A stretch of 64,000 nucleotides of DNA. Origin: Acidobacteriota bacterium. Its GTDB lineage: Bacteria; Acidobacteriota; UBA6911; RPQK01; JAJDTT01. Below, piece after piece: positions 4,022 to 54,859 of this stretch. Positions within the stretch are counted from its first letter, which is position 1; each line of letters starts with the position of its first letter. The stretch covers positions 2,432,001-2,496,000 of the forward strand of contig OZ242374.1 of assembly GCA_965209055.1 (NCBI GenBank). Direction: 5' to 3'. A program made the translations under genes and the position numbers. A model generated the notes under the pieces. The model had not been told where the DNA came from, ran no database searches, and worked only from the letters and a program-made list of their open reading frames with translations.

Positions 4022-4023
4022 GA

Positions 4024-10326: not shown

Positions 10327-10351
10327 AACTACACTGAAGAGGAGAGAAAAC

Positions 10352-11368: not shown

Positions 11369-11410
11369 TCGAATGGGACTGAAATCCCGTCAGCGGCGGC
11401 AAGCCTCCAT

Positions 11411-11773: not shown

Positions 11774-11775
11774 GC

Positions 11776-12915: not shown

Positions 12916-13893
12916 ATGGCCGGATTCCGATGGCCCTATCTGTTGATCACTTCGATTCTGGCGGTCGCCGGACCGGGAATCGCTCCGGCGCAAACCTCGG
13001 CTTGCGCCGATCACTCGATTTCCGCCGGGGCCGTGCGGACATACGAGGACGTGGAGGCGTTCGTCAAATGCGCCTACGAGTTTGTCCAGGAAGTGGGCTT
13101 CGAGGAGGCGAAAAGGGCCTTCCACGAAGACGAACGGTGGAGAAAGGGACCCAACTATATTTTCGTCTCCGAGGATACGCCCGTGAGTGAAGAGACTCGG
13201 AGCTTGGTATTTCCGCCCGACCCGTCCAGGGAAGGACGGACGATAACGCGGCTGCTGGACGACGCCTTCGGCAACAATTACTACAGGGATCGGCATCGTA
13301 TCCTGAGCCTCGTCGGTGAGGGCTGGATCCATTACGCGTTCACGAACCCGGCGACCGGCATGGAAGAGCCCAAGGCCTCCTACGTCAAGAGCATCGACTG
13401 GGACGGGACCCCGGCCGCCATCGGCTCCGGCATCTACCGGCGCGACCTCCCGGGGACCTGCCGGCGAGAAGAGGTCAACGCCACGGTGCTCGGGATGGAC
13501 CCGTCCAACGAGAGGCTGCAGGAGTTCGTCCGTTGCGCCGCCATGGAAGTGGAAGCGATGGGGTACTTCGCCTCCATCAGCCTGTCCGCGGATCCCCGTT
13601 GGAGGCACGACTCGATCTATGTGTTCGGCGTCGACGGAAACGGAAACACGCTGTTCAGCGGGGATCCCTACCGCTGGGGCGGTTGGACCTTGGGCGGCCC
13701 CGATACCGAGCTGACCTCCCTGGCCGACCGGGACGACCTGAGCGTGGCCCAGGCCTTCGGTGAAACCTTCCTCTACTACCTGAGCCGAAACCCCGCCACC
13801 GGGATGGAGCAGCGGAAAGTCGTCTTCGTCAAGCGGGTGGTCACCTACGGCCTGCCGATCCTCATCGGCTCGGGTTATTATCTGGATGAATGA
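12916..13893 (+). CDS. Secreted stand-alone tandem Cache-domain protein, paralog 1
   Basis: Signal peptide, then two Cache-like modules (YIFV...GEGWIHYAFTNPATGMEEPKASYVK...IGSGIY and YVFG...YYLSRNPATGMEQRKVVFVK...IGSGYY). No TM or output domain. GGAGG RBS before ATG 12916. Confidence 0.8.
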   Translation: MAGFRWPYLLITSILAVAGPGIAPAQTSACADHSISAGAVRTYEDVEAFVKCAYEFVQEVGFEEAKRAFHEDERWRKGPNYIFVSEDTPVSEETRSLVFPPDPSREGRTITRLLDDAFGNNYYRDRHRILSLVGEGWIHYAFTNPATGMEEPKASYVKSIDWDGTPAAIGSGIYRRDLPGTCRREEVNATVLGMDPSNERLQEFVRCAAMEVEAMGYFASISLSADPRWRHDSIYVFGVDGNGNTLFSGDPYRWGGWTLGGPDTELTSLADRDDLSVAQAFGETFLYYLSRNPATGMEQRKVVFVKRVVTYGLPILIGSGYYLDE

Positions 13894-38900: not shown

Positions 38901-41330
38901 ATGCGCCTGACGAGCGACGGACAGAATGAATCCCGGTGGAAGGATTTCATTCGGCGCTGCGGACTCCGGTACGCGGGATTCTGGCTTGTGGTCCTGGCAT
39001 GGGCGGCCTGCTACTCGCCGCTCTTGAGTGGCTTGAGGGTCGTCACCTACGACGCCCTGGCTCAGAATTTCCCCGCCGCCGCGTTTTCCGCGAGAGCGAT
39101 TCAGCAGGGAGATTCACCCCTTTGGAATCCGAACCTCTTCGCCGGGCATCCCGCGTTGTCCGATCCCCAGATGTTCCTGTTCTCTCCCCTGTTCATGCCC
39201 TTGATGGTGCTGGGGGACCCTCACGACATCCACTGGTTCACCCTGGTCGTGGCGCTCCACGTGCTTTTGGGCGGGATCGGCTTTTACGTCCTGCTCCGGC
39301 GTGAGGACGTGGCGTTGTTGCCGGCGGTGCTGGGCGCCGCCGTCTTCATGTTCGGCGGGTACGCCCTGACCCGGCTGCAACACACGACCATGATCTTGAG
39401 CTACGCCTACTTCCCGTGGGCGCTGGTGCTCTTGCGCCGTCTGTTGAGCTCTCCCCGGGTTGGCGTTGCGGCAGGTTTCGGTGTCGCCGCCGGGGGCATG
39501 GCGGCGCACGGCAACCAGGTGGCGTACCTGCTGTCGCTGGTTCTGGCCGCCGTCGCGGCGGCGGCGTTCTTCAGGGCGCCGGACAAGGTGGCATTTCTAG
39601 TGCGGAGACTGCCCTGGCTGGCCGCGGCCGGGATCCTTGCATTCCTGGTTCTGCTGCCCCAGCTCTACGGCATCTTCCTGTTCCTGGATGACAGCAACCG
39701 TCCCCATTACGAGTACGCGTTCGGGGCCCGGCAGTCCATGTGGCCCTATATTCCGGCAACGCTGCTGGCGCCGGACCTCTTCGGCGCTCTCGGCGACAAC
39801 TATGTCGGGGCGGATGATCGGACCGAGTCGTTGTTGTACGTCGGAGGCCTCGGTGTGTGGGTGCTGGGGTTCTGGGGCTTGTGGCGCGGAGTCCTCTGGA
39901 GGCGCCGCAACCTGTTCTTCCTCGCCATGCTGGCGTTTTCGCTCCTGTACATGCTTGGCGACCTGACGCCGGCGTACCGTTTGTTCTACGAAGTCATCCC
40001 CGGCGTCGCGCTCTTTCAGCGGCCCCTGGACGGCGGGTTTCTGCTCAATATCGCCTTGGCGGGCCTGATCGCCCTGGTGTTGGACGAGGTGTTGCGAGGG
40101 GACCGGGAGAGGCTTCCGTCGCGGCCGATGCAATTGGCAGGAAGGGTGTGCCTGGCGTTTCTGGGGACGGCTTTCACAGTCGCCGTATGGAAGGGCGTGA
40201 CTCTGCACCAGGATTGGCGGCCGGTGCCGGAGGCCCTCGCCGCGGCCGGGGCCTGGGTGTTCGCATCCGCAGTGGTCCTGTTTCTGTTGTTGCGTTACCA
40301 ACAACTGCGATGGCCGTTGTCTCTGACCCTCACAGCCCTTCTGGTGGCCAACCTGGGATGGGTGAACCTGAACCGCAGGATCAATGTGGTGCCGACCGGA
40401 AAAATCAGCCATCCCGGCGGCTTGCCCAAGGCCCACCGGCAAATCGTGGAGTTCATCGGCGAAAATACGGCTGCCGGAGAGAGCGGCGCTCCCCCTCGCC
40501 GGGTCGACCTGATTTACGCCGGTGCAGAGATGTCGAATCTGCCCAATCTCTATCCGATTCATTCCATTTCGGGCGCCAATCCGTTTGTATCCGGCCGCTA
40601 CCAGATGTTTGCGGGCAAACGAAACGTCTACTCGGGACCGCCGCTGTTTTCACCCATGATGCCCGGCTATGCATCGGAAGCACTGGACAGTCTCGACGTG
40701 AAATATGTGATCACCGCCCTGGACCTGGAAGAGTACGATTCGACCTACGATGCCGCCGATCTGCCGCTGGTGGAGCGCTTCGCCAACATCTCGGTCTACG
40801 AGAATCCGGATGCGCTTCCCCGCGTACGCCTGCTGAACCGGTTCCAGGTCGCCTGCAGTCGAGAGCAGGCGGCGGAACTGCTGTCCAGCCCTTCCTTCTC
40901 CCACCACGGCAATGCGGTGGTCGAACTGCGGGATGATCCGGTCCCCGAGTTGCAACGAGTCTTCGGCGCCGGAGGAGCCCCGCCGTGCGCTGACGGCTCG
41001 AGTATCGAGATTTCAACCGAGCCGGGCGGCCCGGATCAGGTCCGGATCGTGAACTATGAAAACGACCGGGTCGAGGTGGTGACCGACAGCAGGCATCCGC
41101 GCCTGCTGGTCCTGGCGGATGTCCTCACCGAGGGATGGAAGGCCTCGCTGGACGGTCGGGAAGTGCCGATCCACTACGCCAACTATGCTTTCCGGGGCGT
41201 GTTTTTGCCTCCGGGACACCACGAGATCAGCTTCCGGTTCCGGCCGTTCGACGCCGACGTCGCCGTCCGTGTCCTGCGGAGAATCTTATCGGGCCGCGAC
41301 GAGAACCCGGTGCCGATTCGTTACCGTTGA
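38901..41330 (+). CDS. YfhO family polytopic membrane protein (GT-C glycosyltransferase-like)
   Basis: PLWNPNLFAGHP, YVG, YENPDALPR, GWKASLDG, ANYAFRGVFLPPGHHEISFRF. Confidence 0.88.
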   Translation: MRLTSDGQNESRWKDFIRRCGLRYAGFWLVVLAWAACYSPLLSGLRVVTYDALAQNFPAAAFSARAIQQGDSPLWNPNLFAGHPALSDPQMFLFSPLFMPLMVLGDPHDIHWFTLVVALHVLLGGIGFYVLLRREDVALLPAVLGAAVFMFGGYALTRLQHTTMILSYAYFPWALVLLRRLLSSPRVGVAAGFGVAAGGMAAHGNQVAYLLSLVLAAVAAAAFFRAPDKVAFLVRRLPWLAAAGILAFLVLLPQLYGIFLFLDDSNRPHYEYAFGARQSMWPYIPATLLAPDLFGALGDNYVGADDRTESLLYVGGLGVWVLGFWGLWRGVLWRRRNLFFLAMLAFSLLYMLGDLTPAYRLFYEVIPGVALFQRPLDGGFLLNIALAGLIALVLDEVLRGDRERLPSRPMQLAGRVCLAFLGTAFTVAVWKGVTLHQDWRPVPEALAAAGAWVFASAVVLFLLLRYQQLRWPLSLTLTALLVANLGWVNLNRRINVVPTGKISHPGGLPKAHRQIVEFIGENTAAGESGAPPRRVDLIYAGAEMSNLPNLYPIHSISGANPFVSGRYQMFAGKRNVYSGPPLFSPMMPGYASEALDSLDVKYVITALDLEEYDSTYDAADLPLVERFANISVYENPDALPRVRLLNRFQVACSREQAAELLSSPSFSHHGNAVVELRDDPVPELQRVFGAGGAPPCADGSSIEISTEPGGPDQVRIVNYENDRVEVVTDSRHPRLLVLADVLTEGWKASLDGREVPIHYANYAFRGVFLPPGHHEISFRFRPFDADVAVRVLRRILSGRDENPVPIRYR

Positions 41331-41467
41331 CGGCTCCACCCGTCCGGTTTGGAGGCCTTCGGCCGCCACCGAAAAGGTCCATCGATCCAACTCGTAGCGC
41401 GCCCCTGCGGTATGATGCGCAACGAACGAATCTTGCCCGCACAAGCGGAGGACAGGAGAGACTTCCC

Positions 41468-42460
41468 ATGACCGGTTCGATAGTTACGATTATTTTTTCG
41501 CTCGTGTTGAGTGCCCCCGGTTTCGCCGGCCGGCTTCCCGCGGAGACCGCGGCGGGTCCGGGCCGTCCCGGTTCGGCAGCCGAATCCGCGCCCGAGGGGG
41601 TCCGCTGCAAAGGCCAGCCCCAAGGCACGTCCTGCTGGATGGAGTTGGCCAACCAGCCGGGATGTTACGTCTGGAACAGCTACTTCCAGGAGGACGAGGC
41701 CCTGACCTGGACCGCAGAGTGCGTCGAGGGCTTGGCTCACGGCAAAGGCACGCTGACGGAGGCCTGGGACGGGGGCAAAAAAAAGGAGGAAAAAACCGGG
41801 CGCATTGTGAAAGGAAAGGCACTCGGGAAATGGGTCTACCGCGACCAGGATGGGAACGTCTCGGAGGGCCCGTTCAAGGAGGGCATGCGTCACGGAGACT
41901 GGGTCGAGCGCCTGGCGGGAGGGACCGTCCAGGAAGGGCCGTATGAGGCGGGGAAACGGCAGGGCAAGTGGTCTCTGCGCTTCGCTACCGGGACCGTCAT
42001 GGAGGGCTCGTTTGCGAAGGGGTACCAAGAGGGCAAGTGGGTGTTGCGTTTCGCTAACGGAAACGTCCATGAAGGCCCGTACAAGGTCAACAGGCGTCAC
42101 GGAGACTGGGTCGAGCGCCTGGCGAATGGGACCGTCCAGGAAGGCCCGTACGTGAGAGGGAGACGGCAGGGCAAGTGGGTGTTGCGTTTCGCTTCCGGCA
42201 CTGTGATGGAAGGCCCGTTCGTGGCCGGGAAGCGTCAGGGTCATTGGGTCGAGCGCTACGCGGATGGGGCCGTCCTGGAAGGCTCGTATGAGGCGGGCAA
42301 GGAGCAGGGGCATTGGGTCGAGCGTTTGGCGGACGGGACCATCCAGGAAGGCCCGTATGAGGCGGGGAAGCGCCACGGATGGTGGTTCAAGCGGAGGAAA
42401 GGGGTCGTGGTTGAGGAAGCGTACTTTGTGAAGGGGGAAGGGGCGTGGGGCCAAAGCTAG
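41468..42460 (+). CDS. Secreted MORN-like (23-aa) repeat protein with a Cys-rich N-domain, paralog 1
   Basis: Signal peptide, CWMELANQPGCYVWN, then 8 full GxWVxRxxxGTVxEGPYxxGKRx repeats and a terminal variant. Confidence 0.82.
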   Translation: MTGSIVTIIFSLVLSAPGFAGRLPAETAAGPGRPGSAAESAPEGVRCKGQPQGTSCWMELANQPGCYVWNSYFQEDEALTWTAECVEGLAHGKGTLTEAWDGGKKKEEKTGRIVKGKALGKWVYRDQDGNVSEGPFKEGMRHGDWVERLAGGTVQEGPYEAGKRQGKWSLRFATGTVMEGSFAKGYQEGKWVLRFANGNVHEGPYKVNRRHGDWVERLANGTVQEGPYVRGRRQGKWVLRFASGTVMEGPFVAGKRQGHWVERYADGAVLEGSYEAGKEQGHWVERLADGTIQEGPYEAGKRHGWWFKRRKGVVVEEAYFVKGEGAWGQS

Positions 42461-42516
42461 CAGCCCGTGGTAAAAGTCATCACGGCATTCGACCGTCCCT
42501 GCATCCCGGCGGACTG
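42457..42516. repeat. Left part of a split 166-bp palindromic repeat (ERIC/MITE-like), including the left att core
   Basis: CTAGCAGCCCGTGGTAAAAGTC (42457-42478) is the inverted partner of 53437-53458 (20 of 22). The segment ends in CCCGGCGGACTG (42505-42516). Confidence 0.85.
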
Positions 42517-42651
42517 ATTCCAAAAATTCCGTAAACTATTCAACTTAAAAGAGTTACGAATATTTCTTCGACTCTCTTCCCCCCATTATTTCCACCTGAT
42601 CGAATCGGATGCCATTGGCCCTTCGTGGCCGTAAACGGAGTAACCGTTCGG

Positions 42652-42868
42652 TCAGGCCGTGGAAGAGCGGTCGGTCGGCATCCGCTCAAGCAGTGCGACG
42701 GCCGGTGCCCTCGATACCGTGGGGTAGCCGTCTAGAAACTCGCCGAGCTGGTCGCCGACTTCGAGGTGCGATCAGCATGCGCACCGGAACCCTGGTCCCC
42801 GAGAATACGGGAGTCGTCCAAGATGGCAGGATTTCTGCAGGATTTCTGTTAGTGAGCTTCTCGGTCAT
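42652..42868 (-). pseudogene. DUF433 antitoxin pseudogene
   Basis: MTEKLTNRNP..TPVFSGTRVPVRMLI, then a frameshift to HLEVGDQLGEFLDGYPTVSR..AVALLE. It also contains an 11-bp tandem duplication (CAGAAATCCTG x2). Confidence 0.8.
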
Positions 42869-42940
42869 TGTGACCTCCACTCGCGTCCGTCCCGTGTATC
42901 GGTCTGCCAAGCACCCACGCTCGCTCGAATGGGGAGTCTA

Positions 42941-45900
42941 CTATGGCAAGCTGGAGGATGACACCAACAGCAATGCGGCGATTCGTCGTGCGGTGTCGGC
43001 GAAGTGCTGAACTTCCTCGGAACGAAGACTCCTGCCCAGAACCTCGTTCTCCCGGTAGGACAACCACTTCTTGAGCACTTGGTAGCCGCCAAGCCGGTAG
43101 TCCCAGACGGCGGAGGGTAGGTTGCGCCAGTACGCCTCCCCATTCAGGTAGACATCGCAGGTGGTCTCACCAAGGACGGCAAGGTGTTCTGCCAACGCTG
43201 CGCGCTCCTCAGGTCGATAGGGACGCTCGACGATGTGGCCTCTGCCGGGCATCACGGCATCGCCCGCTCCGAAGTGGCCCCAGCCCGCGGTCACGGCGAA
43301 GTCCTCGCCCGCCATGTAGCGTCCCGTAACGGTGTCGGGCACCGCGATCTCGGGACGTAGGGGCGTCCCGGTCCCGCTTGACACAGGCAGTTCCGAGTCG
43401 AGCAGTGCGGCGACCATACGGCCTCTGGTCGCTGATCCAGCGAGTGCTTCCGCCGCTCCTTCGGACTCCCCGTCCGGCCAGCCGGGCAGCGGAATGCGCG
43501 GCCATTCCATGCGCAGCGCCCCCGCGTTGGCCTCCCGATACGCTGGATCGTGAAGGGTGGCGAGCACATGGTGGAACAGATCCTCGACACCGAGACCGAG
43601 GCGGGCAAGATACCGTTGCGCCTTCCCCGAGAGATTGGCACGACGTTCCGTGCCGGTTGCCGCGCCCAAGCCGTCCTCGCGAAGCCATGCCGGGAAGCAG
43701 GTGGCGCTACGATCCATTAAATCGATGCACCCGATCTGAGAGATGACTTGGGGCGGTGACCATTCCCGGCGTGGCTTTCGCTGCGTCACAAAGAACTTGT
43801 TTCCCGTGAAGACATGCGGTGGGTAGCGAGGGCTCTTCTCGCGCAGCAGCTTGGTATCGCGTTCCCAATACAGCCACCGGCTGTCGAACGGTCGGTACGC
43901 GTAGGCAACAAACCCCTCTTCAGCGGGTCCACCTCGCGCGAGCAGTGTGTTTCGGACTCCTCGCGCATCGAACCGTCTGGTGTCCTGCATCACGCGTGGG
44001 TAGCGCCGCGCAATCTCTTCGTGCCTCACCATCGGGTCGAAGTACTCCTCGATGCGTGCCCTGAGTCGGTTTAGGTCCACGTCGACGAGGAACTCGTCGC
44101 GACCGGTCTGGACACCCGGAAACGAGACCGGGAACAGGTCGGGCAGCGCGGGCCAATCGAACCAATCGGGGCTCACCGCAGTCTCCGCGAACGGCAGGCC
44201 CAGCGGCAGAAGCGGTGCGACTTCGGAGTAGAGCGTGTCCGGTTCCGCGTCGGCCGTGGCGGTCAACTCCGTCGGTTTGGACTGCCCCCACAAGTGCCGG
44301 AACGCAATGGCTTCGGTGGGTTCGTGGTTCCTCTTGCGCACCAGCGTCGCGATGGCCGTACCCACTTGGATACCGACCGGATCTCCCTCGGTCGAAAAGA
44401 TGCTCGGGTCGGGCGATCCGTCCGGCGCGACCTTGCCCGTCTTGTACTTGTCGCCGTTCAGACAGTCGATCCGGATCGCGTCGAACGCTTCGAGGTAGCG
44501 CTCCCGCATCCCAGTGAAGGACAGCCCGTCGAGCCACGAGTAGTTGGAGATGAAGCAGACGACGCCCTGTCCGGTCTTCTCCGCGATGCGGCGCTCCGCC
44601 ATTCGGAAGAACCGGACGTATAGGTCATTCAGGCCCTGTCCTTCGGGCTTCCGCACGCGCTCTGTCGTGCGGTACGCTTCCGAGAGTTCACGTTCTTCTT
44701 CCACTGCCATGCCCGCGAACCCGTTGTAGGGCGGGTTGCCGAGGATCACCAGGATCGGGACGTCCTGCTTCACTGCTTCCGCGAGGTCGCGCTCCTCTTC
44801 AAGCTCCGGGAACGGCAACGGCTTGGTCGTGTGCGGTTCCCAGCCCGTCAGAGCGTTGGTGAGAAACACCCCGGCGCGCTCCGATCCGTCCTCCGCCAGC
44901 GGTGCGCCCAGATTCTGCATGGTTAGGCCGACCTGCAAATGAGATACGACGAACGGCGCGGGCATGATCTCGAACCCGAACACTCGCTCGATTGCCGCCC
45001 TCCTGACCTCCGCGCCCGCGAGCGCCCCGAGGCCCTGCTCCCCGAGATTGACGGCGATGCGCCGGAGCACCTCTGCCAGATAGGCCCCCGTTCCACAGCA
45101 GGGGTCCAGCACATAGACGTTCTCGGCTGCGAGCCCCGCTGGAATCCCCAGATCGTCCTTGAGCGCCCTGTCCACCCGCGCGACCATGTAGCGGACCACT
45201 TCGGTCGGCGTGTACCACACCCCCAACTGCTTTCGGAGAACAGGGTCGAAAGCTTCCAGGAACGGTTCATAAAAGTACGGCACGGCCTCGCCTTCGTTGA
45301 ACCGTGAGAAGAACGCCGTCCGGTCCACGCGGTCGAGCGCCGCCGATGTCCAGTCCAATACCTCGACCAGGCCGAGCGACATCAACCGGCCCGGGTCGGC
45401 CAACTGTTGGAATAAGGCCCGCAGCACGGGTGCGCGCAGGTGCCAGACCGCCTCGCGCCACCGGAACCGCTGGGGACCGTAGTGGTCCTGGAACAGCGGG
45501 CCGTTCCTGTTCTGCTCGTGGCGGGACCACAGCACCCACGCGGAGAAGATGCCGTAGAACAGCGTCTGGATCAGGGTCGAACGGAAGAGACGTTCCCCGC
45601 GCTCGTCCTCGAAGCGAATCCCGAGCGCTTCCTCCATCGCCGAGCGGACGGCCACAAGCGATGGAACATTCCCCGCGGCCTCGACGCGGGCCAAGCCGTC
45701 GCGGGCGTAGGAAGCCAGCAGCCACGCCAAGTCCTTCGGCTCCGCCAGGGCGGCCCGATGCGACAGCGCCCGCGCTAGATACTCGCCGAGGCCCGCGCCG
45801 ATCTCGCGGGCGAAGGCGCGAGGAGTCTCCACCCGGCGCCAGAAGTCGTCCGCATCCTTGGCCAAGCGGTAGGTTTCGAGCTTGGCTGGGCCTCCCCTCC

Positions 45901-46306
45901 CGTCCGCGCCCACCAAGACGAAATTCCGTAGGTTCGTAACCAGCACCAGCCGGTAACGGCCCCAATAGCGGCTCACCTGATCGGATTCCGCCGTCAACCA
46001 GGCATTGTCACCAACGCCCTTGACCTCGACGACGCCACGCTCTGGAACCTGCCCCGGCCTCGGGCGGCCCCTCTGAACCTGCCTCGCCGTGTACAGGGCA
46101 CAGTCGGGATGGCCAGCCCCCTGATCCGCGGGTTCCAAAACGCAGAACACCTTGGGTCTCAGTGTAGCCCCGACCGCCCGCAGCAAGCTCGCCAGCGCCG
46201 GATAGTACGAGCGCTCGCCCGTAGCGCCGCCCGATGCGCGCACGCGCCGGAGTTCGCCGAAATACGCCTCCACTGCGGCGGCTAACTTCTTGTTCGGTTG
46301 GGCCAT
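42941..46306 (-). CDS. Single-chain restriction-modification enzyme (N6-adenine MTase with Type ISP-like C-terminal specificity domain and N-terminal PD-(D/E)xK-like domain; no helicase)
   Basis: GHPD...VVEVK, FYEPFLEAFDP..RKQLGVWYTP, VLDPCCGTG, GNPPY, YRPFD, WDYRLGGYQVLKKWL. Start ATG 46306 after AGGAAGG. Confidence 0.88.
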   Translation of the reverse strand: MAQPNKKLAAAVEAYFGELRRVRASGGATGERSYYPALASLLRAVGATLRPKVFCVLEPADQGAGHPDCALYTARQVQRGRPRPGQVPERGVVEVKGVGDNAWLTAESDQVSRYWGRYRLVLVTNLRNFVLVGADGRGGPAKLETYRLAKDADDFWRRVETPRAFAREIGAGLGEYLARALSHRAALAEPKDLAWLLASYARDGLARVEAAGNVPSLVAVRSAMEEALGIRFEDERGERLFRSTLIQTLFYGIFSAWVLWSRHEQNRNGPLFQDHYGPQRFRWREAVWHLRAPVLRALFQQLADPGRLMSLGLVEVLDWTSAALDRVDRTAFFSRFNEGEAVPYFYEPFLEAFDPVLRKQLGVWYTPTEVVRYMVARVDRALKDDLGIPAGLAAENVYVLDPCCGTGAYLAEVLRRIAVNLGEQGLGALAGAEVRRAAIERVFGFEIMPAPFVVSHLQVGLTMQNLGAPLAEDGSERAGVFLTNALTGWEPHTTKPLPFPELEEERDLAEAVKQDVPILVILGNPPYNGFAGMAVEEERELSEAYRTTERVRKPEGQGLNDLYVRFFRMAERRIAEKTGQGVVCFISNYSWLDGLSFTGMRERYLEAFDAIRIDCLNGDKYKTGKVAPDGSPDPSIFSTEGDPVGIQVGTAIATLVRKRNHEPTEAIAFRHLWGQSKPTELTATADAEPDTLYSEVAPLLPLGLPFAETAVSPDWFDWPALPDLFPVSFPGVQTGRDEFLVDVDLNRLRARIEEYFDPMVRHEEIARRYPRVMQDTRRFDARGVRNTLLARGGPAEEGFVAYAYRPFDSRWLYWERDTKLLREKSPRYPPHVFTGNKFFVTQRKPRREWSPPQVISQIGCIDLMDRSATCFPAWLREDGLGAATGTERRANLSGKAQRYLARLGLGVEDLFHHVLATLHDPAYREANAGALRMEWPRIPLPGWPDGESEGAAEALAGSATRGRMVAALLDSELPVSSGTGTPLRPEIAVPDTVTGRYMAGEDFAVTAGWGHFGAGDAVMPGRGHIVERPYRPEERAALAEHLAVLGETTCDVYLNGEAYWRNLPSAVWDYRLGGYQVLKKWLSYRENEVLGRSLRSEEVQHFADTARRIAALLLVSSSSLP

Positions 46307-46367
46307 CCTGCCTTCCTGGTGATTCGGACGCGCCTCCGCATTGAGGCTGCCCTCTGGCGATTCAATC

Positions 46368-46598
46368 GTGACCGTAAGCACTCTAACAAAGGCGGCGCTC
46401 GTGGAGAACGTGGCCAACGTCGCCAACCTCACGAAGAAGCACTCCGGAAGTCGTCGTCGAGACCGTGTTCAGCAACATCGCCAAGGCGCTTCTCGGCGGG
46501 AGAAGGTCGAACTTCGTGGCTCCCGGCAGCTTTCGCCTCCCGCGCCGCCGAGAGCCGCCAGGAGCCTCAATCCCACGAAGCGGTCCAGCAGGCCGTAG
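46368..46598 (+). pseudogene. Integration host factor/HU family pseudogene
   Basis: Pieces in shifting frames read LTKAALVENVANVANLTKKHS / VVVETVFSNIAKAL / EKVELRG / GSFRL / RRE / LNP, which is the IHF/HU consensus broken by several frameshifts. Confidence 0.8.
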
Positions 46599-47069
46599 CA
46601 TCGAAGAACGGTGCAGGCTGGAGCCATCGTCGGTGCCTTGGTCGGCATCGCGGGAATCGTAGTCAGTGTCCTCAGGTTGTACGGTTGACAGCCCTTACGA
46701 AGCTACCGGCTGCCGCTAGTACACAGCGATTTGCGATGCCTGAAACCAATGCCGCAGTGGATTCTCCAGACTGCGCCAGATTGTCCTTTCCGCCGCAATC
46801 TGTTGGTGGAACCCGCGATGTGGCACGCCTGAAGGCGACGGCCGACGTGCTCGGGGATGTGTCCGCGCTCGTTCTGGGTGACCGGGCCAACAGGTGCCGG
46901 TCCTTGCATTAAGTGCTGCGAACTGCGGCTTCTGGAGCAGATGCCGGCGATTAGTTCTCCATGTGGAACCTGCGGCGCACCCGCGCACCCAAACGCCGCG
47001 GACTTGGTATGGCAGATTGCGGCTTCATCACGTTTGTCGCTCGCGGTTCAGCGCGTGAGATCGCCGGAC

Positions 47070-47318
47070 ATGGCAGAGCCGGAGGTTGACGTTACCTTGG
47101 TCTACGCGCCGCAATCTGGGAAACGGTCTTGGCTCCGGCTGACCGGTCGGCGCGACGAGATACCAGCGGGTGATCGGTACCGGTTGCTGATCCATGTCGT
47201 GGTCAAGAGCCTCGCAAAGTATGAAGTCGTCATCGACGTGAAGGGCCGGAATGACGACCCGATTTCTCGCAAAGTCATAGCTGCTCTGGAGCTTGAGTTG
47301 GTGTCCGTGTACGACTAG
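47070..47318 (+). CDS. Hypothetical protein or gene fragment
   Basis: Plausible amino-acid composition in the 3' part of ORF 46857-47318. No recognisable motif. Confidence 0.3.
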   Translation: MAEPEVDVTLVYAPQSGKRSWLRLTGRRDEIPAGDRYRLLIHVVVKSLAKYEVVIDVKGRNDDPISRKVIAALELELVSVYD

Positions 47319-47815
47319 ATGGACAGTTCGATTATTCCACTGTCTGCTCCGCGTCCGCACAATAGCCAAATTTGCTCGAAGGGATGTTCACCGAAGATGA
47401 TACTCTTATCTGCAAGATAGGATTGGAAGTCGGCATACGTCCACAGTGGATTGGCGTTTCGAACCAGGAGCCACACTGGAGTCGTACTGTACGTCTTCTT
47501 GCACTTAGACTGAAGCACTCTCGCCAGGCTGTCGCCAATTCGGCTACTCAACGGGGTAAGTCGTGCTTGCTGCTGCTCTTCCTCACTCGGGTAGGAATGG
47601 CCTCGTCTTCCAAGAAGTCTCTTTGCGTCAGATGGGGGACCATATACGTGAGCAACTTCAATGTAGACATCTTCGCCAGCCAATGTGCATCGCGTGTCTG
47701 GGCGAGGGGGTTGGCAGCATTTCTTATACTCTAAGTGGCGTCCGGGATGCCGCCGGTTGTACGCCTCACAGAACTCGATGACCCCGAACTTCTCAAGATC
47801 GGATTTTTCAGACAT
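47315..47815 (-). CDS. Hypothetical protein, putative PD-(D/E)xK nuclease fold
   Basis: PRPD...VYIEVA arrangement, plus K..KTY, WLLV and PFEQIWLL strands seen in small restriction-like proteins. GGAG RBS. Visibly lower GC. Confidence 0.55.
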   Translation of the reverse strand: MSEKSDLEKFGVIEFCEAYNRRHPGRHLEYKKCCQPPRPDTRCTLAGEDVYIEVAHVYGPPSDAKRLLGRRGHSYPSEEEQQQARLTPLSSRIGDSLARVLQSKCKKTYSTTPVWLLVRNANPLWTYADFQSYLADKSIIFGEHPFEQIWLLCGRGADSGIIELSI

Positions 47816-48007
47816 TCGTTGCTCCGGCGGCTCTCAGTTCGAAAAGCTCGTGTCGTCCACGACATAGGACTACACGCTTGGCAGGTCGCGACTATAGCAG
47901 GCGCACGACTCGGGTGATCACCGCGCTGGCCGCCCATGGGCTGACGACCACGCACGGCTGCAACCGCTACGCGACGCGTAATTACGATCCGTGAAAGTCG
48001 GCTCGTA

Positions 48008-50353
48008 TCACGACTCCATCATGGATGATGCTAGCTGCCGTCGAACACGCTCGATTTCCGTCGCACGAACCTCGGCGGCCTTCGCTTCGGAGGATCTTCC
48101 GAGACCTTCGTCGACCATGGCCAAGAGTCTCCATGTCTGTGCCCTCCAAGGAGCCAGTTCCACCGCCCGTTCAGCGTGACCAATGGCACTGCGAAAATCA
48201 CGCGTTCGCCACCGGAACGAGGCTCGCTGAAACGGAATTTCCCAATATCGTGGATAAAGCGCTTGGGCTTGATCTAGGACTGTTTCGGCTTCCTCGTATT
48301 GTTCGGTCCATTCTTGCAACCGCGCCAAGTAGCAGAAGTCACCCGATTCCCTCAGCTTTTCGTCCTGAACAATTCGAGCAAAGAACTCCACGGCATCGGG
48401 CACAATCACCCGCTTACCGGCCGACGTTATTCTTCCGATGCAGAAACCGTCAGCTATCGTACTCGCTCGCACACGTTCGAGCCTGACAACGTTGTATCGT
48501 TCCCTCAGGTCCGTATCGCTAAACTCGGAAATCTTCTTCAGCCAACCGTCACAGAACTTCAAGCAATCGTGATGGGCGTTGACTCGATCCAAACAACGCG
48601 CCATCAGGTAAGCGATAAAGATACGATCGGAATTATGGATCGGCAGGTCCTGCATCTCGCGGAGTTCGTTGGAGCATTGAGCGTAGGCGGTCATCGCCTC
48701 AAGCACAATCGTCAATTGAAGCCGAGCAGGAAGGTACCGCGAATTATCCTTCTTCGCTTCGCGAAGGAGGCTAGCGGCGTATTTGAATCGTTTCACCGCC
48801 AATGGCCAATCGGTTTCGCGGATGCTCTCAGCTGCCTTGAAATATAGAGTCCCGACCTCTTGCAACGAGTGGACATCACGTTGTTGCGCGAGCCGGGTTT
48901 TGGCCGTCTCGAACGCGTCGTCAAAGGCACCCATCGCGGTTTGTGCAACGAGGAGGTTGCCGGTGAGATCTCGGTCACGACGATATAGTCGCAACCCCTC
49001 AAGTGCGACCGTGGCTGCAGCACGATGGTCAGAGGTTCTAATCAGGGCAAGCGAGAGATTGACGAAGTACTCGGCTGGTTTATCGATCGCAGCTGATATG
49101 CACGCGAGAACTTCAGTTGCCTCGTCGGCGCGGCCGAGGTGGATGAGGCACAAAGCATAGCAAACCGTGACGGCTTGATTGTAAGAGTAGTCTGGGGTGG
49201 CCACCACCATTTCCGGCACGAACAGGCTGCGTAGGATCGCCTCAGCTTTGGTGTAATCACCGACGGCGATGAGGGCGTCGGCTTCCCGCATGAACGGTTC
49301 CAGGTCGGATCCCTCGACAACACGATGAGTGCCCGCGTCGTTGGTTACGCCTCCCGCCACTCTGGAAAGGTCGCGATGAGTCTTTGCGCCGACCATGGAT
49401 ATTACGTATCGGCTAGTGGGTAGGAATCTTCGATAAGCTACCCGCCTTTTCTTCGCAGCTTCGGCGAGGGCAAGATCGATCGAGGCATAGTCAGGCGGTC
49501 TCTTCCTAGGGTCCTTTTCAAGACACTGGCGTATCAACCTCTCGGTGCCGAACGTGGTCTTCTTGAAGAGGCCCCCGAGCGGGGACGGTGCTTGGGACAA
49601 GTGCTTGAAAAGCACCTCGGCCACCGTAGTACCGACGAACGGGCACCTCCCGCATTCCCATTCGTACATGAGGCAACCCAAGCTGTAGATGTCGCTTCGG
49701 TGATCAACGTCACCACCCCTGCCGAGCTGCTCTGGAGAAGCGTAAGAGACAGTCCCCAAGATTTGCCCAGCCGCGGTGAGGCCGGGGTCTCCGCCGTCCC
49801 GTGCGGCAGCGGAGCCGTCGGTTTGCGTCGTGGGGTTGGCGACTGTAAGGGGTCGGGCTAAACCCCAGTCGGAGACGAATGCGAGATTGCGTTCGTCGAG
49901 CAAGATGTTGTCCGGCTTAAGGTCGCGGTGAATAACAGCGTGCTCTTGGTGCGCCCAAGCGAGGGTTCCGACGATACGCGCCATAACCGAGAAAAAGAAA
50001 TCCGGGGATCGGTTCTTCAGGTGTACACGGAGATTGCCACCCGGCATCCAGCGTGAGCATACAACGGGGACTTCATCGATCCGAGTGATGCACAGCGCTT
50101 CGACAACGCCATCACAGGCAGAAAGCGTGGTCCAGACGCGGACTTCACGGAGATATCGGGCCCAAGCGTCAGAATCATCAATGATTTCGCGTTGGATTGT
50201 CTTCAGAGCAAACGAAGCGCTACCCTGCACGACGCGGATGCACTCACCCATGCCGCCCCTCAAGATCCGATCAACCCTGAATTCCGCTGATGGCAATCCC
50301 AGGTGCGCGGCGAGTTCGGGCAGCGTTAGAATCTGACTCGGTCTAATAATCAA
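48008..50353 (-). CDS. Hanks-type Ser/Thr protein kinase with C-terminal TPR-like repeats (cytoplasmic)
   Basis: GGMG, ALK, HRDLKPDNIL, DWG, GTVSYASPEQ, DIYSLG, RP. Helical repeat C-terminus (AVELAPW). No TM segment. TTG start. Confidence 0.88.
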   Translation of the reverse strand: MIIRPSQILTLPELAAHLGLPSAEFRVDRILRGGMGECIRVVQGSASFALKTIQREIIDDSDAWARYLREVRVWTTLSACDGVVEALCITRIDEVPVVCSRWMPGGNLRVHLKNRSPDFFFSVMARIVGTLAWAHQEHAVIHRDLKPDNILLDERNLAFVSDWGLARPLTVANPTTQTDGSAAARDGGDPGLTAAGQILGTVSYASPEQLGRGGDVDHRSDIYSLGCLMYEWECGRCPFVGTTVAEVLFKHLSQAPSPLGGLFKKTTFGTERLIRQCLEKDPRKRPPDYASIDLALAEAAKKRRVAYRRFLPTSRYVISMVGAKTHRDLSRVAGGVTNDAGTHRVVEGSDLEPFMREADALIAVGDYTKAEAILRSLFVPEMVVATPDYSYNQAVTVCYALCLIHLGRADEATEVLACISAAIDKPAEYFVNLSLALIRTSDHRAAATVALEGLRLYRRDRDLTGNLLVAQTAMGAFDDAFETAKTRLAQQRDVHSLQEVGTLYFKAAESIRETDWPLAVKRFKYAASLLREAKKDNSRYLPARLQLTIVLEAMTAYAQCSNELREMQDLPIHNSDRIFIAYLMARCLDRVNAHHDCLKFCDGWLKKISEFSDTDLRERYNVVRLERVRASTIADGFCIGRITSAGKRVIVPDAVEFFARIVQDEKLRESGDFCYLARLQEWTEQYEEAETVLDQAQALYPRYWEIPFQRASFRWRTRDFRSAIGHAERAVELAPWRAQTWRLLAMVDEGLGRSSEAKAAEVRATEIERVRRQLASSMMES

Positions 50354-50618
50354 TTGGAGAATCTCGCTGTCACTTGCGTCGTTTCGCGTGTTCTAGCGCA
50401 TGCATACCGGATGAGCCGATCCGACAGGCCCCAGCCGCATGTATCAGCGCTCGTCTGGTGACACCGATACCGCACGATAGTGAACGTGTGGATTCGATGG
50501 CAACTGGTTCGATCCGCAACATCTCCGTCGTCTTGCGCCGAATCTTCGTTGCTGCCGACTGCATACTCGGAGGCGACGGGTGGCTCCCGACACGTTTGGG
50601 TGTCATGAGCCAGCCTAT

Positions 50619-50635
50619 CCAATGTAATACATTGG
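50619..50635. promoter_or_regulatory. Perfect operator-like palindrome CCAATGTA-A-TACATTGG
   Basis: 8-bp perfect arms, further flanked by CCAGCC/GGCTGG. Confidence 0.45.
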
Positions 50636-50768
50636 GGCTGGTGAGGGGATGCTACGCTACCCTTCGAACCCCGCTCGAAGTTCCGGCCAGTGGAGCCGGA
50701 GGCCCGACCGGCCGGTTGATCCGCCGCGTTCTCAGCAGCGCTTCGAGGCCTTCCCGCCAGGGATATAT

Positions 50769-50869
50769 TGGACGGGAGCGACCCCCCCAGGGGGTGTGGC
50801 GCAGATGTAAATTGCGCCACACCCCCGCGCCCGCACCGGGCAGGAAAAAGGGGGGGTCGCTCCCGTCCA
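50769..50869. repeat. Nested perfect inverted repeats (three-way junction/cruciform); candidate origin or protein-binding site
   Basis: 20-bp IR 50769-50788/50850-50869 encloses a 14-bp IR 50790-50803/50813-50826 and a 5-bp hairpin 50829-50841. Confidence 0.8.
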
Positions 50870-51069
50870 CCTCCGATTTCCCCGTGCGGGCACGGCGGAG
50901 CCGGGAATGTGGCCGTAACTGCATGAGCGACAAAGAGATCGGGGAAAGCGGAGGTGAAAGTCAAAAGGCTGCCGGGATGTAAGTCGCGTCCTTTGTCTCC
51001 CTTACACTCCCGGATCGACACCGGGAAGCCCTTTCACCTCCCCATGAACCTCGTCGATCCGCAAGTGAC

Positions 51070-51400
51070 GCAGCTGTTGCAAGCGCTGGCGGCGCTTGGC
51101 CTTTCCCGGCGGCTGTTCCCGTGCCGCCACTATGCCGGCCATGTCCAGGGACGGCGCCGGTACTTCCCCCGCAAGCTCCCCCTGGCCCTGGAGGAGGACC
51201 GGGCGACCTTCGTCTATGTCGATCCCGGTCGGGATACCGACTCGGAGCTGCTTTCGTGGAGGGCGGAGCACGCCCCGATCTGGGCCGGGCTGCGCGCACG
51301 AGAGCGCCCGGTGCACGTGGTCGCGGTGGCCCGCGACGACCTCCGGCGGGAGCGGGCCGGGAAGATCCTGCGGCGCTGGGCCAGCCCGGACCCCGAGGCC
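51070..51400 (+). pseudogene. Truncated fragment of a mobile-element-associated protein (possibly replication/relaxation related)
   Basis: LGLSRRLFPCRHY...RRYFPRKLPLAL...FVYVDPG..SW..EH..IW..LR..VHVVAV reads as the C-terminal part of a protein, with host-like GC. No credible N-terminus. Function is inference. Confidence 0.45.
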
Positions 51401-51581
51401 GTGTTCCACTTCCGGTGGGCCGGTCCGGAGAAGTCCCAGGATGTGAAACACACATGGGGGAGTGTGTTCCACTCTCGGAGCGGCGAGTTTCACAAGCCCC
51501 CTTTCCGTCATCTTGTTGAGCCCCTTCGGGTTGTCCCCGTCCTTCCGGAGGAGGCGCGCCCGGACGGGGAGTCCGGGTAGG

Positions 51582-51690
51582 AGAAGTGAGCGACCCCCCT
51601 GTTTTCGTGCCTCGCACGTCACGCAAGCGCTGCCAGTGTTCCACTCCGTTGGACACCAGCGCGGCATGCGCGGGGGGGTCGCTCACTTCT
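51582..51690. repeat. Perfect 18-bp inverted repeat sharing the GAGCGACCCCCC core
   Basis: AGAAGTGAGCGACCCCCC (51582-51599) / GGGGGGTCGCTCACTTCT (51673-51690). Confidence 0.8.
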
Positions 51691-51955
51691 TCATTGATCC
51701 CTGCGGGAAGGCCTCTGCGAAGATGGGGACGGGAGAATTCCAGTCTGTCGTGAGAGAATGCCCCGCATGGGAGAGGACAACGTCCAACGGCCTATCCCGA
51801 ACCCTTGGCCCGGTCTCACCAAGCCAACACAGGCGAAATGGCGGGCTTGTTTTTTCGGGAATTCTCGAAGACTGCGCCTGAGTGGGTTTCAGGCGGCGAA
51901 TCGGCGGGCTATGGCTTCGCGCAGGCCTTCAAGCAGGCGCTCTGCGCACGGCGGA

Positions 51956-53179
51956 TCAACGGAGCAGTCCGGCCGCCGAGTCTCGACTCTCGCCAGCCAG
52001 GTAGTCCGCCCATTCGTCCATGAGCCGACGCCGGCGCTCGAACAGGTCCGTGCGTCGGTAGGCCGCCTCGATCGGGTTGCGCACCTTGTGCGCCAAAGCC
52101 GCCTCCGCCACCTCGCGCGGATGATCCGTCTCCTCCGCCGCCCAGTCCCGGAAACTCGACCGGAACCCGTGCGGTACCGCCGCGATCCTCAACCTCCGGA
52201 GCAGCTCCGCCATCGCCGTGTTCCCGACTGGCTTTCCGCCCACGCTCGGAAACACGAGGGGTCCGATGCCACCGAGGGCCCGCGCCTCCTCCAGGATCTC
52301 CAACGCTCGCCGGGACAACGGGACCCGGTGCTCCCGATTCCCCTTCGTACGCCGGGCCGGGATGGTCCACACCCCCTCCTCCCGGTCGATCTCCGTCCAC
52401 GCGGCCCTGCGGACCTCGCCGGAACGTGTCGCCGTCAGCACCAGGAACTCGAACGCCAGCTTCAACACCGGCCGCGCGTTGGACGCCTGCACCGACTGGA
52501 GCGCGGCTGCAACCTCGCGGTGGGGCAACGCCCGCATGTGACGCACTACCTTCCCCTGCGCACCAAGCACCGGGCCGATCCGGTCACAGGGGTTGTCGGG
52601 CCGAAGATCCATCGCCACGGCCCACTCCAGGACCGCGCGGATGCGCTGGCGCAGCTTCCGGGCCGTGGAGGCCTTCTCGTGCCAGATCGGAGCGAGGATG
52701 CCGATCACGTCGGCACTCGTCACCTCCGCAATCGGCATCTCGCCGATGCGAGGGAAGGCGTGGTATTCCAGGCTCCCCAGCCAGAGCCGCGCATGCCGGG
52801 CGGAGCGCCAGCCCGGCCGCAGTTGCTTCCAGACCGTCCGGGTGGCGTCCGCGAACGTGGGCATCGCGACGGACTCCCGCTTCCCGGCCCGGGGATCGCC
52901 CCCCTCGCGGGCCAGCTTGCGGTTGGCGAACGCCTTCTCTCGCGCTTCCCTGAGCGAGACGAGGGGGAATCCACCGAGTCCGAGCTCGGCTCGGCGGCCA
53001 CGGATCGTGAGGCGTTGAATCCAGCCCCGGCTGCCCGTGGGCCGGACGTCGAGATAGAGACCCTGGCCGTCGCAGTAGCGTCCGGCCTGACTCACGTTGC
53101 GGACAAAGACCGGTGTCAGGGCGTTGAGGGGATGCCGGCCGCGCGGCTTGCGTTTCGGGGGACGTTTCACAAGTGCCAT
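51956..53179 (-). CDS. P4-like tyrosine integrase with an N-terminal arm-DNA-binding (DUF4102) domain
   Basis: DGQGLYLDV...LGLGGFPLVSLREAREKA. Catalytic R (TATRSGEV), K (RTKG), HGFR, ALAH and Y (AAYRR) all present. Confidence 0.95.
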   Translation of the reverse strand: MALVKRPPKRKPRGRHPLNALTPVFVRNVSQAGRYCDGQGLYLDVRPTGSRGWIQRLTIRGRRAELGLGGFPLVSLREAREKAFANRKLAREGGDPRAGKRESVAMPTFADATRTVWKQLRPGWRSARHARLWLGSLEYHAFPRIGEMPIAEVTSADVIGILAPIWHEKASTARKLRQRIRAVLEWAVAMDLRPDNPCDRIGPVLGAQGKVVRHMRALPHREVAAALQSVQASNARPVLKLAFEFLVLTATRSGEVRRAAWTEIDREEGVWTIPARRTKGNREHRVPLSRRALEILEEARALGGIGPLVFPSVGGKPVGNTAMAELLRRLRIAAVPHGFRSSFRDWAAEETDHPREVAEAALAHKVRNPIEAAYRRTDLFERRRRLMDEWADYLAGESRDSAAGLLR

Positions 53180-53200
53180 ACCCACCACTATACCCCCACA
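53178..53200. promoter_or_regulatory. Putative integrase arm-type binding sites
   Basis: Tandem ATACCCACCA / ATACCCCCAC, 12 bp apart at the int start. A C-rich look-alike (TTCCCCCCATTATTTCCACC) lies ~60 bp inside the other end. Confidence 0.45.
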
Positions 53201-53340
53201 ATATCGTGGATGCAAGGGGACGAAGCGGATCGGTATGGGACACCATTGGGCGTCAGAAATCCTGATAAATCAATGAAAAACAGACACTTATGTACAGCAC
53301 TGGACATATCTGGACGCTATGTCCATCTCACAAACTACAG

Positions 53341-53458
53341 CCCGGCGGACTGCGTTGCGATTCGGGCACATACTCAAGGTATGCACCCGAATCGCGCCTT
53401 GTCCGGCGGGCGCAGGAACGGTCTCGGTGCTCGCGGGACTTTCACCACGGACTGCTAG
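53341..53458. repeat. Right part of the split 166-bp palindromic repeat, including the right att core
   Basis: Core CCCGGCGGACTG, central hairpin GCGATTCGGG..CATAC-TCAAG-GTATG..CCCGAATCGC, an arm complementary to 42485-42514, and terminal GACTTTCACCACGGACTGCTAG. Confidence 0.85.
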
Positions 53459-53559
53459 GCCGTTCTCCCCGACGGGAGATCGATGAACCCGTGGAACACT
53501 CCTTCGGATCGGCCGTTTTCCATTCTTCACCTCCAGCGTAATTTCATATACTTCGAGCC

Positions 53560-54162
53560 ATGTCCAAGGAGGCCGTCCCGCATCATCCCGTTCACAGATT
53601 CATCTCGGCGCGCTGGAGTCCATACGCCTTCTCGCGGCGGCTGATCCCTCGCGAAGATCTGCTGTCCATCTTCGAGGCGGCGCGCTGGGCGGCATCCTCG
53701 TTCAACGAACAGCCCTGGCGCTATCTCGTCGCGAGTCGCGACCGGAAGGAGGAATTCGAGAAGGTCTTGAGCTGCCTGCTCGAGGGCAACCAGGCCTGGG
53801 CCCGCGAAGTTCCGACGCTCGCGCTCGGGTGCATCAGGACAAGCTTCACCCACAACGGCCGGTTCAACCGCGTCGCACAGCACGATCTGGGACTGGCTTC
53901 CGCGAGCCTCACGTTCGAGGCGACGAGCCGGGGAATCTACGTGCATCAAATGGCCGGAATTCGGCCCGACAAGGCGCGGGAGGTATTTTCCATCCCGGAC
54001 GGGTTCGAGGCAGTAACGGCGCTGGCGCTCGGCTATCGGGCCGATCCCGGCGCTGGAGCCCCGAAATTGCGGGCACGAGACGAAGGTTCGCGCACCCGCC
54101 GGCCCCAGAGCGAGTTCGTGTTCGGCGCCGAGTGGGGAAAGCCGGGTCTTGGATCCACGTAG
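53560..54162 (+). CDS. Nitroreductase family protein
   Basis: RWSPYAF, EAARWAASSFNEQPWRY, HDLG, HQMAG. Confidence 0.92.
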   Translation: MSKEAVPHHPVHRFISARWSPYAFSRRLIPREDLLSIFEAARWAASSFNEQPWRYLVASRDRKEEFEKVLSCLLEGNQAWAREVPTLALGCIRTSFTHNGRFNRVAQHDLGLASASLTFEATSRGIYVHQMAGIRPDKAREVFSIPDGFEAVTALALGYRADPGAGAPKLRARDEGSRTRRPQSEFVFGAEWGKPGLGST

Positions 54163-54678: not shown

Positions 54679-54859
54679 CGGCAGCTGTCGTACAGGCGTT
54701 GGACAGAGTGGTCGAAAACGAGCAGACGTTCTGACGAATTCTGATCCGTTCCCACACCGGGACAGCCCGCCCGATGCGCTTCCCGGCGGTGCTCGGCTTC
54801 GGTAAGATCAAGAGCAATCGATCCTTCTCCGAGCGCGCCCAGGACAGTTGGGAATGCCC

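Follow-up and report, generated by a model that had tools for sequence, protein, structure and literature searches.

Integrative islands of the P4/CP4-57 type usually target the 3' ends of tRNA or tmRNA genes or conserved genes, and the one or few conserved chromosomal sites on which site-specific integrases usually depend set a limit to the number of related islands per genome. The integron integrase IntI uses a folded, single-stranded attC site and moves single promoterless cassettes. The integrase of the phage-inducible chromosomal island-like element (PLE) of Vibrio cholerae is a large serine recombinase, and the insertion sequence (IS) elements that target repetitive extragenic palindromic (REP) sequences are ~1-2 kb long. 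PLE integrates into the V. cholerae repeat (VCR), a ~124-bp repeat with >100 copies, and transductants carry PLE at different places (PMC5481146). IS1397, ISKpn1, IS621, ISPa11 and ISPpu9/10 home to REP and bacterial interspersed mosaic element (BIME) palindromes at a defined position (PMC1525189, PMC3184786). Here we analyse a 64-kb window of an Acidobacteriota genome (G000:C1:2432001-2496000; G000 is a single-contig genome of 6.08 Mb), by which we mean the whole stretch of DNA under study. The region very probably represents a 10.8-kb integrative island inserted by site-specific recombination into one 158-bp copy of a MITE (miniature transposable element with inverted repeats), which we call MITE-1.

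The island is bounded by a 12-bp direct repeat, CCCGGCGGACTG, whose copies at 42505-42516 and 53341-53352 (window positions) enclose a 10,836-bp insert. An initial annotation, made from the sequence alone, had pointed out this repeat, and its two copies are indeed the only exact occurrences in the window (100 shuffles, none reaching two). The ATG of the intact integrase open reading frame (ORF) lies 161 bp from the right copy, close to the ~160 bp given there, and a tRNA/tmRNA search of the window found none, in line with the claimed lack of a tRNA target. The features of the locus are as follows (window positions).

42457-42460, no strand: left target-site duplication CTAG, including the stop codon of the ORF at 41135-42460.
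42461-42516, plus strand: left part of MITE-1, forming attL with the island end; it runs from the terminal inverted repeat (TIR) CAGCCCGTGG... through the core (hidden Markov model (HMM) positions 5-65).
42505-42516, plus strand: attL core copy CCCGGCGGACTG; the 7-bp CCGGCGG inside it is the probable strand-exchange region.
42517-42680, plus strand: integrase-distal attP arm ATTCCAAAAATTCCGTAAAC..., conserved among sister islands.
42941-46432, minus strand: type IIG restriction-modification enzyme, a 1163-aa ORF (PADLOC and Pfam).
47315-47815, minus strand: cargo ORF of 166 aa, no match in Pfam, PADLOC, PHROGs or NCBIfam.
48008-50353, minus strand: Ser/Thr protein kinase with C-terminal tetratricopeptide (TPR) repeats, 781 aa (Pfam and PADLOC).
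50761-51050, minus strand: copy of a second repeat, X, in the island backbone (blastn 90% over 291 nt; genome 2483050-2482761).
51051-51955, no strand: conserved backbone between X and the integrase, conserved among five islands; 51468-51770 varies least.
51956-53179, minus strand: P4/CP4-57-type tyrosine integrase, 407 aa, intact ORF (Pfam and PHROGs).
53180-53340, minus strand: attP arm on the integrase side; GTCCAG/TGGACA-like motifs recur in it, and a conserved TTGCAT...TATAGT motif directly precedes the ATG.
53341-53454, plus strand: right part of MITE-1, forming attR with the island end; it opens with the second core copy, 53341-53352 (HMM positions 48-171).
53455-53458, no strand: right target-site duplication CTAG, matching the left copy.

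When the outer pieces are joined in a script, they give 166 nt that fold end to end. The initial annotation took all 166 bp as the restored element. The rebuilding and the fold stand, but the outermost CTAG on each side lies outside the repeat and is a target-site duplication, since intact copies have matching 4-bp flanking words; MITE-1 proper is 158 bp long, small and without an ORF. The rebuilt element contains a perfect 10-pair inner helix (positions 65-74 with 94-103), its core positions 49-60 pair with 109-118 on the opposite arm, and its outer ends form a 22-bp TIR with two mismatches, duplicated flank included (left 1-22 against genome 2485458-2485437). The terminal repeats and the inner stem, both of which had been predicted, were thus recovered in the alignment and the fold. 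An intact natural copy (L146:54-227) folds likewise as DNA, at -53.8 kcal/mol compared with -32.7 ± 3.3 kcal/mol for 200 shuffles (z = -6.5).

A search with an HMM of 11 near-full copies (nhmmer, E up to 1e-3) gave 67 matches in the genome, which reduce to 50 non-overlapping places once the opposite-strand duplicates of the palindrome are removed; 19 are full length, 20 left-only and 11 right-only. Intact copies start with CAGCCCGTGG, end with CCACGGACTG and are flanked by TTAG, TTAA, TTGA, CTAA or CTAG. Flanks were read for nine of the 11 aligned intact copies and are identical in six, with a one-base difference in the other three. The right part of the copy at the island is 94-98% identical to the right parts of other copies. 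MITE-1 was found in all eight genomes of the same genus, in none of six from the sister genus and, as weak matches, in four of 26 others of the same order, and its positions are not conserved between species. At the orthologous locus in two relatives (G004 and G001) the flanks are joined by a single TTAG, with neither repeat nor island. The TIRs, 4-bp duplications, multiple copies and presence or absence at orthologous loci identify the repeat, by its sequence features, as a MITE, and the 50 places bear out the earlier description of a multicopy MITE/ERIC-like repeat (ERIC, enterobacterial repetitive intergenic consensus). A different insertion of ~162 bp lies 60 bp downstream of the MITE site of G000 in two relatives (G001:C1:4490436-4490597 and G008:C234:1818-1978); its sequence includes the palindrome GGGGCACCCCTTGTGGGTGCCC, and it may represent a further small mobile repeat.

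A long hairpin that folds so far beyond its shuffles (z = -6.5), lying here directly downstream of a stop codon, could also belong to a family of regulatory hairpins (REP-like) or of genes for small structured RNAs, used by the integrase as its relatives use tRNA genes. We regard this as very unlikely. No Rfam family reached its gathering score in the whole window, where, in 50500-53600 with the right part of the element, the only matches at E up to 1 were two weak, unrelated ones, both on the X copy. TIRs, 4-bp duplications and presence or absence at orthologous loci are signatures of a transposon, and the positions of copies differ between species. The flanking ORF (41135-42460, 441 aa), for which Pfam gives no family, contains internally repeated DNA that is also found across the island (the 54848-56011 region) and, in many partial matches, in other parts of the genome.

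Seven left/right pairs of MITE-1 in the genome are split at the core (HMM positions ~65 and ~48-56). They are given below with genome positions and the cargo of their islands.

67853-84052: split copy with intact integrase (68k island); a methyltransferase and two leucine-rich repeat (LRR) proteins, 1100 and 1230 aa long.
571451-580354: split copy with intact integrase (571k island); a PDDEXK_4 nuclease.
2474456-2485458: split copy holding the island studied here; a type IIG restriction-modification enzyme and a Ser/Thr kinase with TPR repeats.
3838514-3848533: split copy with intact integrase, inverted (3838k island); DUF4357 and T5orf172 proteins.
4956906-4968856: split copy with intact integrase (4956k island); a type I restriction system (HsdR, HsdS, HsdM) and an AAA_13 protein.
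4556126-4560882: split copy with a degenerate core and no integrase of this family (4556k).
5258823-5273366: split copy with a degenerate core and no integrase of this family (5258k island); a ResIII helicase and a DUF772 transposase-like ORF.

Five of the seven adjoin open-frame integrases that are 93.8-96.8% identical to the one studied and lie ~160 bp inside one junction. The initial annotation had named, as a test of its proposal, a search for many intact copies and for others split at the same 12-mer near homologous integrases; the genome holds 19 full-length copies and seven split ones, five of them with integrases. None of the homologous integrases inspected sits at a tRNA-like target with a better fit to the core. 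All seven occupied copies have a CATCCCGGCGG-type core. The core could be read in ten high-scoring intact copies, five of the CATCCCGGCGG type and five with the CACAGGCGCGG variant (two others gave no core call); for MITE-1 a CATCCCGGCGGACTG core and a CACAGGCGCGGACTG variant are distinguished. The exact core is present in five of the 19 full-length copies, which are unoccupied attB copies.

Inside the junctions, the islands share the distal arm ATTCCAAAAATTCCGTAAAC... and the proximal arm ...TGGACATATCTGGACGCTATGTCCATC...ACTACAG. Relative to the studied island, the distal arm is 95-96% identical in the 571k and 4956k islands, 88% at 3848k and 77% at the 84k end of the 68k island. The integrase-proximal arm is 89-91% identical in four sister islands and 75-79% identical in a sister clade of integrases, and the motifs within it are putative arm-type binding sites. 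Island-to-island alignments extend only over the first ~167 bp, ~600 bp around the X copy and the last ~1.95 kb (integrase and arm); common to the islands are thus the arms, the integrase and ~1.2 kb beside it, and the remainder differs. The repeat family, its common split site, the conserved arms and the variable cargo are observed directly, as are the two orientations and the empty alleles described below.

The island at 3838514-3848533 is inverted relative to its MITE, with the integrase beside the left MITE part and the distal arm against the right part. Both arrangements recur in related species, where further copies are split at the same core next to homologous integrases, as the initial annotation had anticipated. 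The integrase lies beside the right MITE part in G004 (L033) and beside the left part in G007 (L032/L061), with the other half 6 kb away, and split MITE-1 copies also hold two damaged integrases, one broken (G008, L044) and one truncated (G004, L120). A search with the distal arm of seven related genomes found 14 junctions, of which eight are in MITE-1 (four direct, four inverted), five at the end of repeat X and one elsewhere. The island could instead have used a secondary site just once, or the 12-bp repeat could be due to chance, without any specificity for the MITE; the fact that recombination was not observed directly is the one point in favour of this reading. With the 12-mer expected only 0.04 times in the window, and with seven split copies here and eight junctions in relatives at the same position, we consider the probability of such a one-off or chance event negligible.

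The attP core assembled from attL and attR, CAG-CCCGGCGGACTG, is an imperfect 15-bp palindrome, CAGYCCGSCGGRCTG, and the same stretch in the MITE reads CATCCCGGCGGACTG. Strand exchange most likely takes place within the 7-bp CCGSCGG, because at inverted junctions the MITE sequence continues up to CCGCCGG and is followed by island sequence. CCGSCGG is palindromic save for its central base and has imperfect inverted CAKY/RMTG half-sites on both sides. With an overlap region so nearly symmetric, the island could therefore enter in either direction.

From these sequences we infer the chemistry of recombination, the precise overlap region and the order in which events took place. MITE-1 would first have transposed into TTAG/CTAG just past the stop codon of the ORF at 41135-42460, duplicating 4 bp. 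A circular island with the attP site ...ACTACAG-CCCGGCGGACTG-ATTCC... would then have recombined, at the 12 matching bp, with the left arm of the MITE hairpin, presumably through its own P4-type tyrosine integrase, to leave attL and attR with one core copy each and a split MITE. As the MITE is multicopy and itself mobile, the genome would offer many docking sites, and sister islands with different cargo would accumulate in one chromosome. We hold integrase-mediated docking into MITE copies with high confidence.

The occupied copies could also have multiplied largely without the integrase. A single integration into a MITE might have been followed by the spread of the whole MITE-left/island/MITE-right unit as a composite transposon through its TIRs, with a transposase acting in trans, in which case most occupied copies would not be integrase events. 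Every empty orthologous site examined lacks both MITE and island, the whole unit has a 4-bp duplication, and the MITEs of the 68k and 2474k islands are mutually nearest (97.6%), all as such a history would have it. Nevertheless, both island orientations occur, here and in relatives (four direct and four inverted junctions), and several integrase events are therefore needed. The MITE halves of the 68k island are 98% identical to those of the studied island, far more alike than the distal arms, which are only 77% identical. Occupied MITEs also group with different intact copies, 571k with 2985k (97.1%) and 4956k with 1074k, in a tree of ~160 columns in which supports for occupied/intact pairings are weak (0.68-0.86), and a sister integrase clade behaves likewise at a different repeat. 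The MITE halves thus appear not to have co-diverged with the islands. We consider the composite transposon unlikely; both orientations, the 98% versus 77% identities, the different intact partners and the uniform occupied core type favour repeated integration.

Metagenomes bring a further view of the locus. Twenty sequencing runs contain part of the island, and four were examined, as contigs. Contigs of all four join 42455 to 53454, an allele without MITE and without island, with sides of at least 255 nt in three runs (X5, X6 and X7). Contigs of X5 and X6 also cross the MITE-left/island junction (42474-43078), which is thereby confirmed outside the assembly, and cover cargo (46013-50810, ~1-2% different). 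These island contigs have a depth similar to that of the empty-locus contig, 17-22 compared with 19 in X5. The simplest reading is that in the X5 and X6 populations the island sits at another MITE copy, although a mixture of strains may also give this pattern. These independent sponge metagenomes point to mobility of the island.

Several observations weigh against integrase-mediated docking. Two of the seven split copies (4556k and 5258k) have no integrase of this family. The 68k and 571k loci share duplicated outer flanks that are 97% identical and are therefore not fully independent events; here 570500-571450 and 84053-85003, together with the right flanks, are the two copies of one segmental duplication, and the islands in them differ in cargo while their MITEs are only 95.5% alike. 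The studied locus has no intact MITE in any genome compared, and as the orthologous sites of relatives lack MITE and island alike, they leave the order of events unfixed. The same applies to the orthologous sites of the 571k island, which have no MITE either, and nothing in the loci of relatives corresponds to the right flank of the 4956k island. Conversely, G000 is without a MITE where G004 carries an occupied one, and the flanks of the G004 L120 copy are ~1 kb apart in G000 with no MITE match between them. No circular attP junction is among the 15 of 57 contig joints listed. One contig joint, 42504 to 53341, was not counted as a trace of excision: it has sides of no more than 19-22 nt and, with a multicopy MITE, comes from other copies. 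The branch that unites the MITE-targeting integrases has moderate support (81/57). The backbone contains no excisionase, replication, transfer or packaging gene recognised by Pfam, PHROGs or NCBIfam.

The parent transposase of the MITE was likewise not found. A terminal-repeat search allowing up to three mismatches gave 81 matches, mostly MITE ends, and no convincing full-length parent element; the ORF between one 1.46-kb terminal-repeat pair has no Pfam match, and the ORFs in the 4.6-kb split MITE copy match no Pfam family. The DUF772 ORF of one island was considered as the MITE transposase and rejected, as a blast self-comparison showed no inverted or matching ends.

The integrase has, by its sequence, the domains that define the P4/CP4-57 type. 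Pfam identifies Arm-DNA-bind_3 (PF13356, 7e-17, residues 22-102), Phage_int_M (PF22022, 2.5e-24) and Phage_integrase (PF00589, 4.5e-15, covering profile positions 3-165 of 172), and PHROGs assigns phrog_1 integrase (4.2e-55). The N-terminal domain aligns with that of a CP4-like integrase in the PDB (3jtz, E 3.7e-08); no catalytic-domain structure aligned. Candidates for the catalytic R-K-H-R-H/W-Y residues, picked by eye against this motif, lie in TATRSGE, TKGNREHRV, HGFRSSFRDW, LAHK and AAYRR. The usual target rule of the type, a restored tRNA or tmRNA 3' end, does not hold here, as the target is MITE-1 and is left split. Among annotated integrases, the nearest from a phage is 40% identical and the nearest on a plasmid 48%.

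Upstream of the integrase, a conserved motif, CCCTTGCATCC-N(12-14)-TATAGTGGTRGGTATG, at 53180-53225 runs straight into the ATG and is kept in most of the homologous upstream regions read, in Acidobacteriota and Gemmatimonadota loci. Its hexamers enclose a small palindrome, and it could serve as the promoter of an mRNA without a leader; the TTGCAT...TATAGT motif that precedes the integrase ATG was not among the sites returned by a consensus promoter scan. Among the backbone ORFs tried (none under 45 aa), Pfam, PHROGs and NCBIfam gave no match to an Xis/AlpA directionality factor, and PHROGs matched the integrase only, with no P4-like satellite genes (primase/helicase, capsid-size, packaging). 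For the backbone at 51051-51955 a coding frame was sought and cannot be assigned, because all frames are open at this G+C, the 208-aa ORF breaks up in the sister islands, and Pfam, PHROGs and NCBIfam gave no match.

The type IIG enzyme of the studied island is recognised by PADLOC (REase_MTase_IIG, E 1.6e-83) and Pfam (Type_ISP_C 3.8e-40, N6_Mtase, Eco57I), and the kinase by Pfam (Pkinase 7e-31 and TPR families) and PADLOC (PD-T4-6 9.8e-46, mad6 1.9e-37). Across the islands, cargo is mostly defence-like, as had been claimed, and the claim fails for the 68k island with its two giant LRR proteins. These ORFs (L140, G000:C1:67800-84100, at 3451-6753 and 9858-13550; LRR_8 E 4e-100 and 3e-152) are eukaryote-like rather than defence-like.

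The genome contains 16 integrases of the wider family. A tree of 61 integrases (IQ-TREE), from which six duplicate-place rows and seven stop-containing rows were dropped, places all seven MITE-targeting integrases to one side of a branch (81/57); this branch lies inside a clade of genus level (100/99). Their sister group (97/92), clade B, is 83-88% identical to the studied integrase and has different junctions, ...ATCC(T)TGCGG|ACTGTTTC at the distal end, which is flanked by the terminus of repeat X, and ...|CCTTGCGGGAAGGC on the integrase side. Integrases that are ~85% identical thus use different cores, CCCGGCGG in MITE-1 and CCTTGCGG at the X end. Repeat X is ~200-300 bp long and has 54 copies in the genome (blastn, E up to 1e-20); an integrase lies within 3 kb of 21 of them, and the other 33 are farther from any. 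The X end, CCCTGCGGGAAGG, serves as an attB-like attachment site for clade B; of the 49 ends displayed, 44 are intact and CCCTGCGGGAAGG-like and five are split there. X has long internal inverted repeats, GACGGGAGCGACCCCCCC ... GGGGGGGTCGCTCCCGTC, and lies downstream of the integrase in many islands. At genome 1583228-1610640 one island appears to lie within another: a clade-B island (integrase 1610463) has its distal end in the X copy of an island with a 31%-identical integrase (1580736-1581899), and a second clade-B island (1598887-1608675) lies between the ends of the first.

Integrases of a third clade, 63-67% identical (in this genome at 185750, 469925, 817984, 1064814, 2675793 and 2971074), lie against a short hairpin rich in G+C, GCGGCGGTTTTCCTACCGCCG, with a G run after it. 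On a light check, GCGGCGGTTTTCCTACCGCCG-like elements of 35-50 bp occur at at least 11 other places, and the third clade may also target a repeat. Relatives that are 75-88% identical come from records titled Acidobacteriota, Longimicrobiales/Gemmatimonadota, Palauibacter and Versatilivoraceae, and most of the upstream regions read in them have a CTTCCCGCAGGG-like junction with varied flanks, some of which are repeated within a genome. Such integrases (loci L061-L103) are found in complete Gemmatimonadota/Longimicrobiales and Acidobacteriota chromosomes, and in Gammaproteobacteria-titled bins, where short contigs with the integrase could be mis-binned. This spread suggests transfer between phyla.

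Tentatively, and with more doubt than conviction, we suggest a superfamily of "repeat-homing" islands, in which every clade of integrases has adapted a near-palindromic core to a repeat of its own, with mutual seeding and cross-phylum movement. Clade A would then use MITE-1, clade B the X end and clade C a short REP-like hairpin, and islands that carry X would provide each other with new places to dock. Defence and eukaryote-like genes would be stockpiled by a system of two tiers, mobile repeats and islands, and the 75-88% identical integrases in metagenome-assembled genomes of Acidobacteriota and Gemmatimonadota would reflect movement between phyla in sponge microbiomes.

Integrase-mediated docking into MITE-1 matters in its own right for the interplay of mobile repeats and islands and for how symbiont genomes collect defence genes. 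If the docking site is a mobile multicopy repeat, the number of sites can grow, five to seven sister islands can coexist as they do here, and the landing DNA would already be dispensable. This would offer a concrete mechanism by which uncultured symbionts gather restriction systems, nucleases, kinases and eukaryote-like repeat proteins. The pair CCCGGCGG and CCTTGCGG constitutes a natural specificity-switch series that could be used for studying or engineering the target choice of arm-binding tyrosine integrases. For annotation, the islands advise caution, as finders keyed to tRNA-flanked islands will overlook them.

How, then, do these islands compare with known systems? We found no description of a tyrosine-integrase island with MITE copies as attB in the open-access literature (supplements aside), and one may exist. 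The closest functional precedents are PLE in VCRs and IS elements in REPs, and neither is a tyrosine-integrase island docking into dispersed MITEs. PLE shares with the present islands the combination of a defence island with a multicopy repeat as its attachment site. However, VCRs are integron attC sites in one superintegron array rather than dispersed MITEs, and there is one PLE per cell compared with five to seven islands per chromosome here. The REP-targeting IS elements use DDE/DEDD transposases and have no cargo, whereas here a tyrosine integrase accompanies islands of 9-16 kb and the proposed reaction is attP x attB. Recombination between attC and attI in integrons likewise involves a tyrosine recombinase that acts on imperfect palindromic repeats, but the integrase here is of the arm-binding P4 type and travels with its cargo, and nothing points to the use of a folded strand. 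In overall design the islands are closest to those of the P4/CP4-57 type, with a three-domain integrase, the integrase beside one att site, short flanking direct repeats, a small backbone and variable cargo, and they differ in that the target is a multicopy MITE, is not restored and is used in both orientations.

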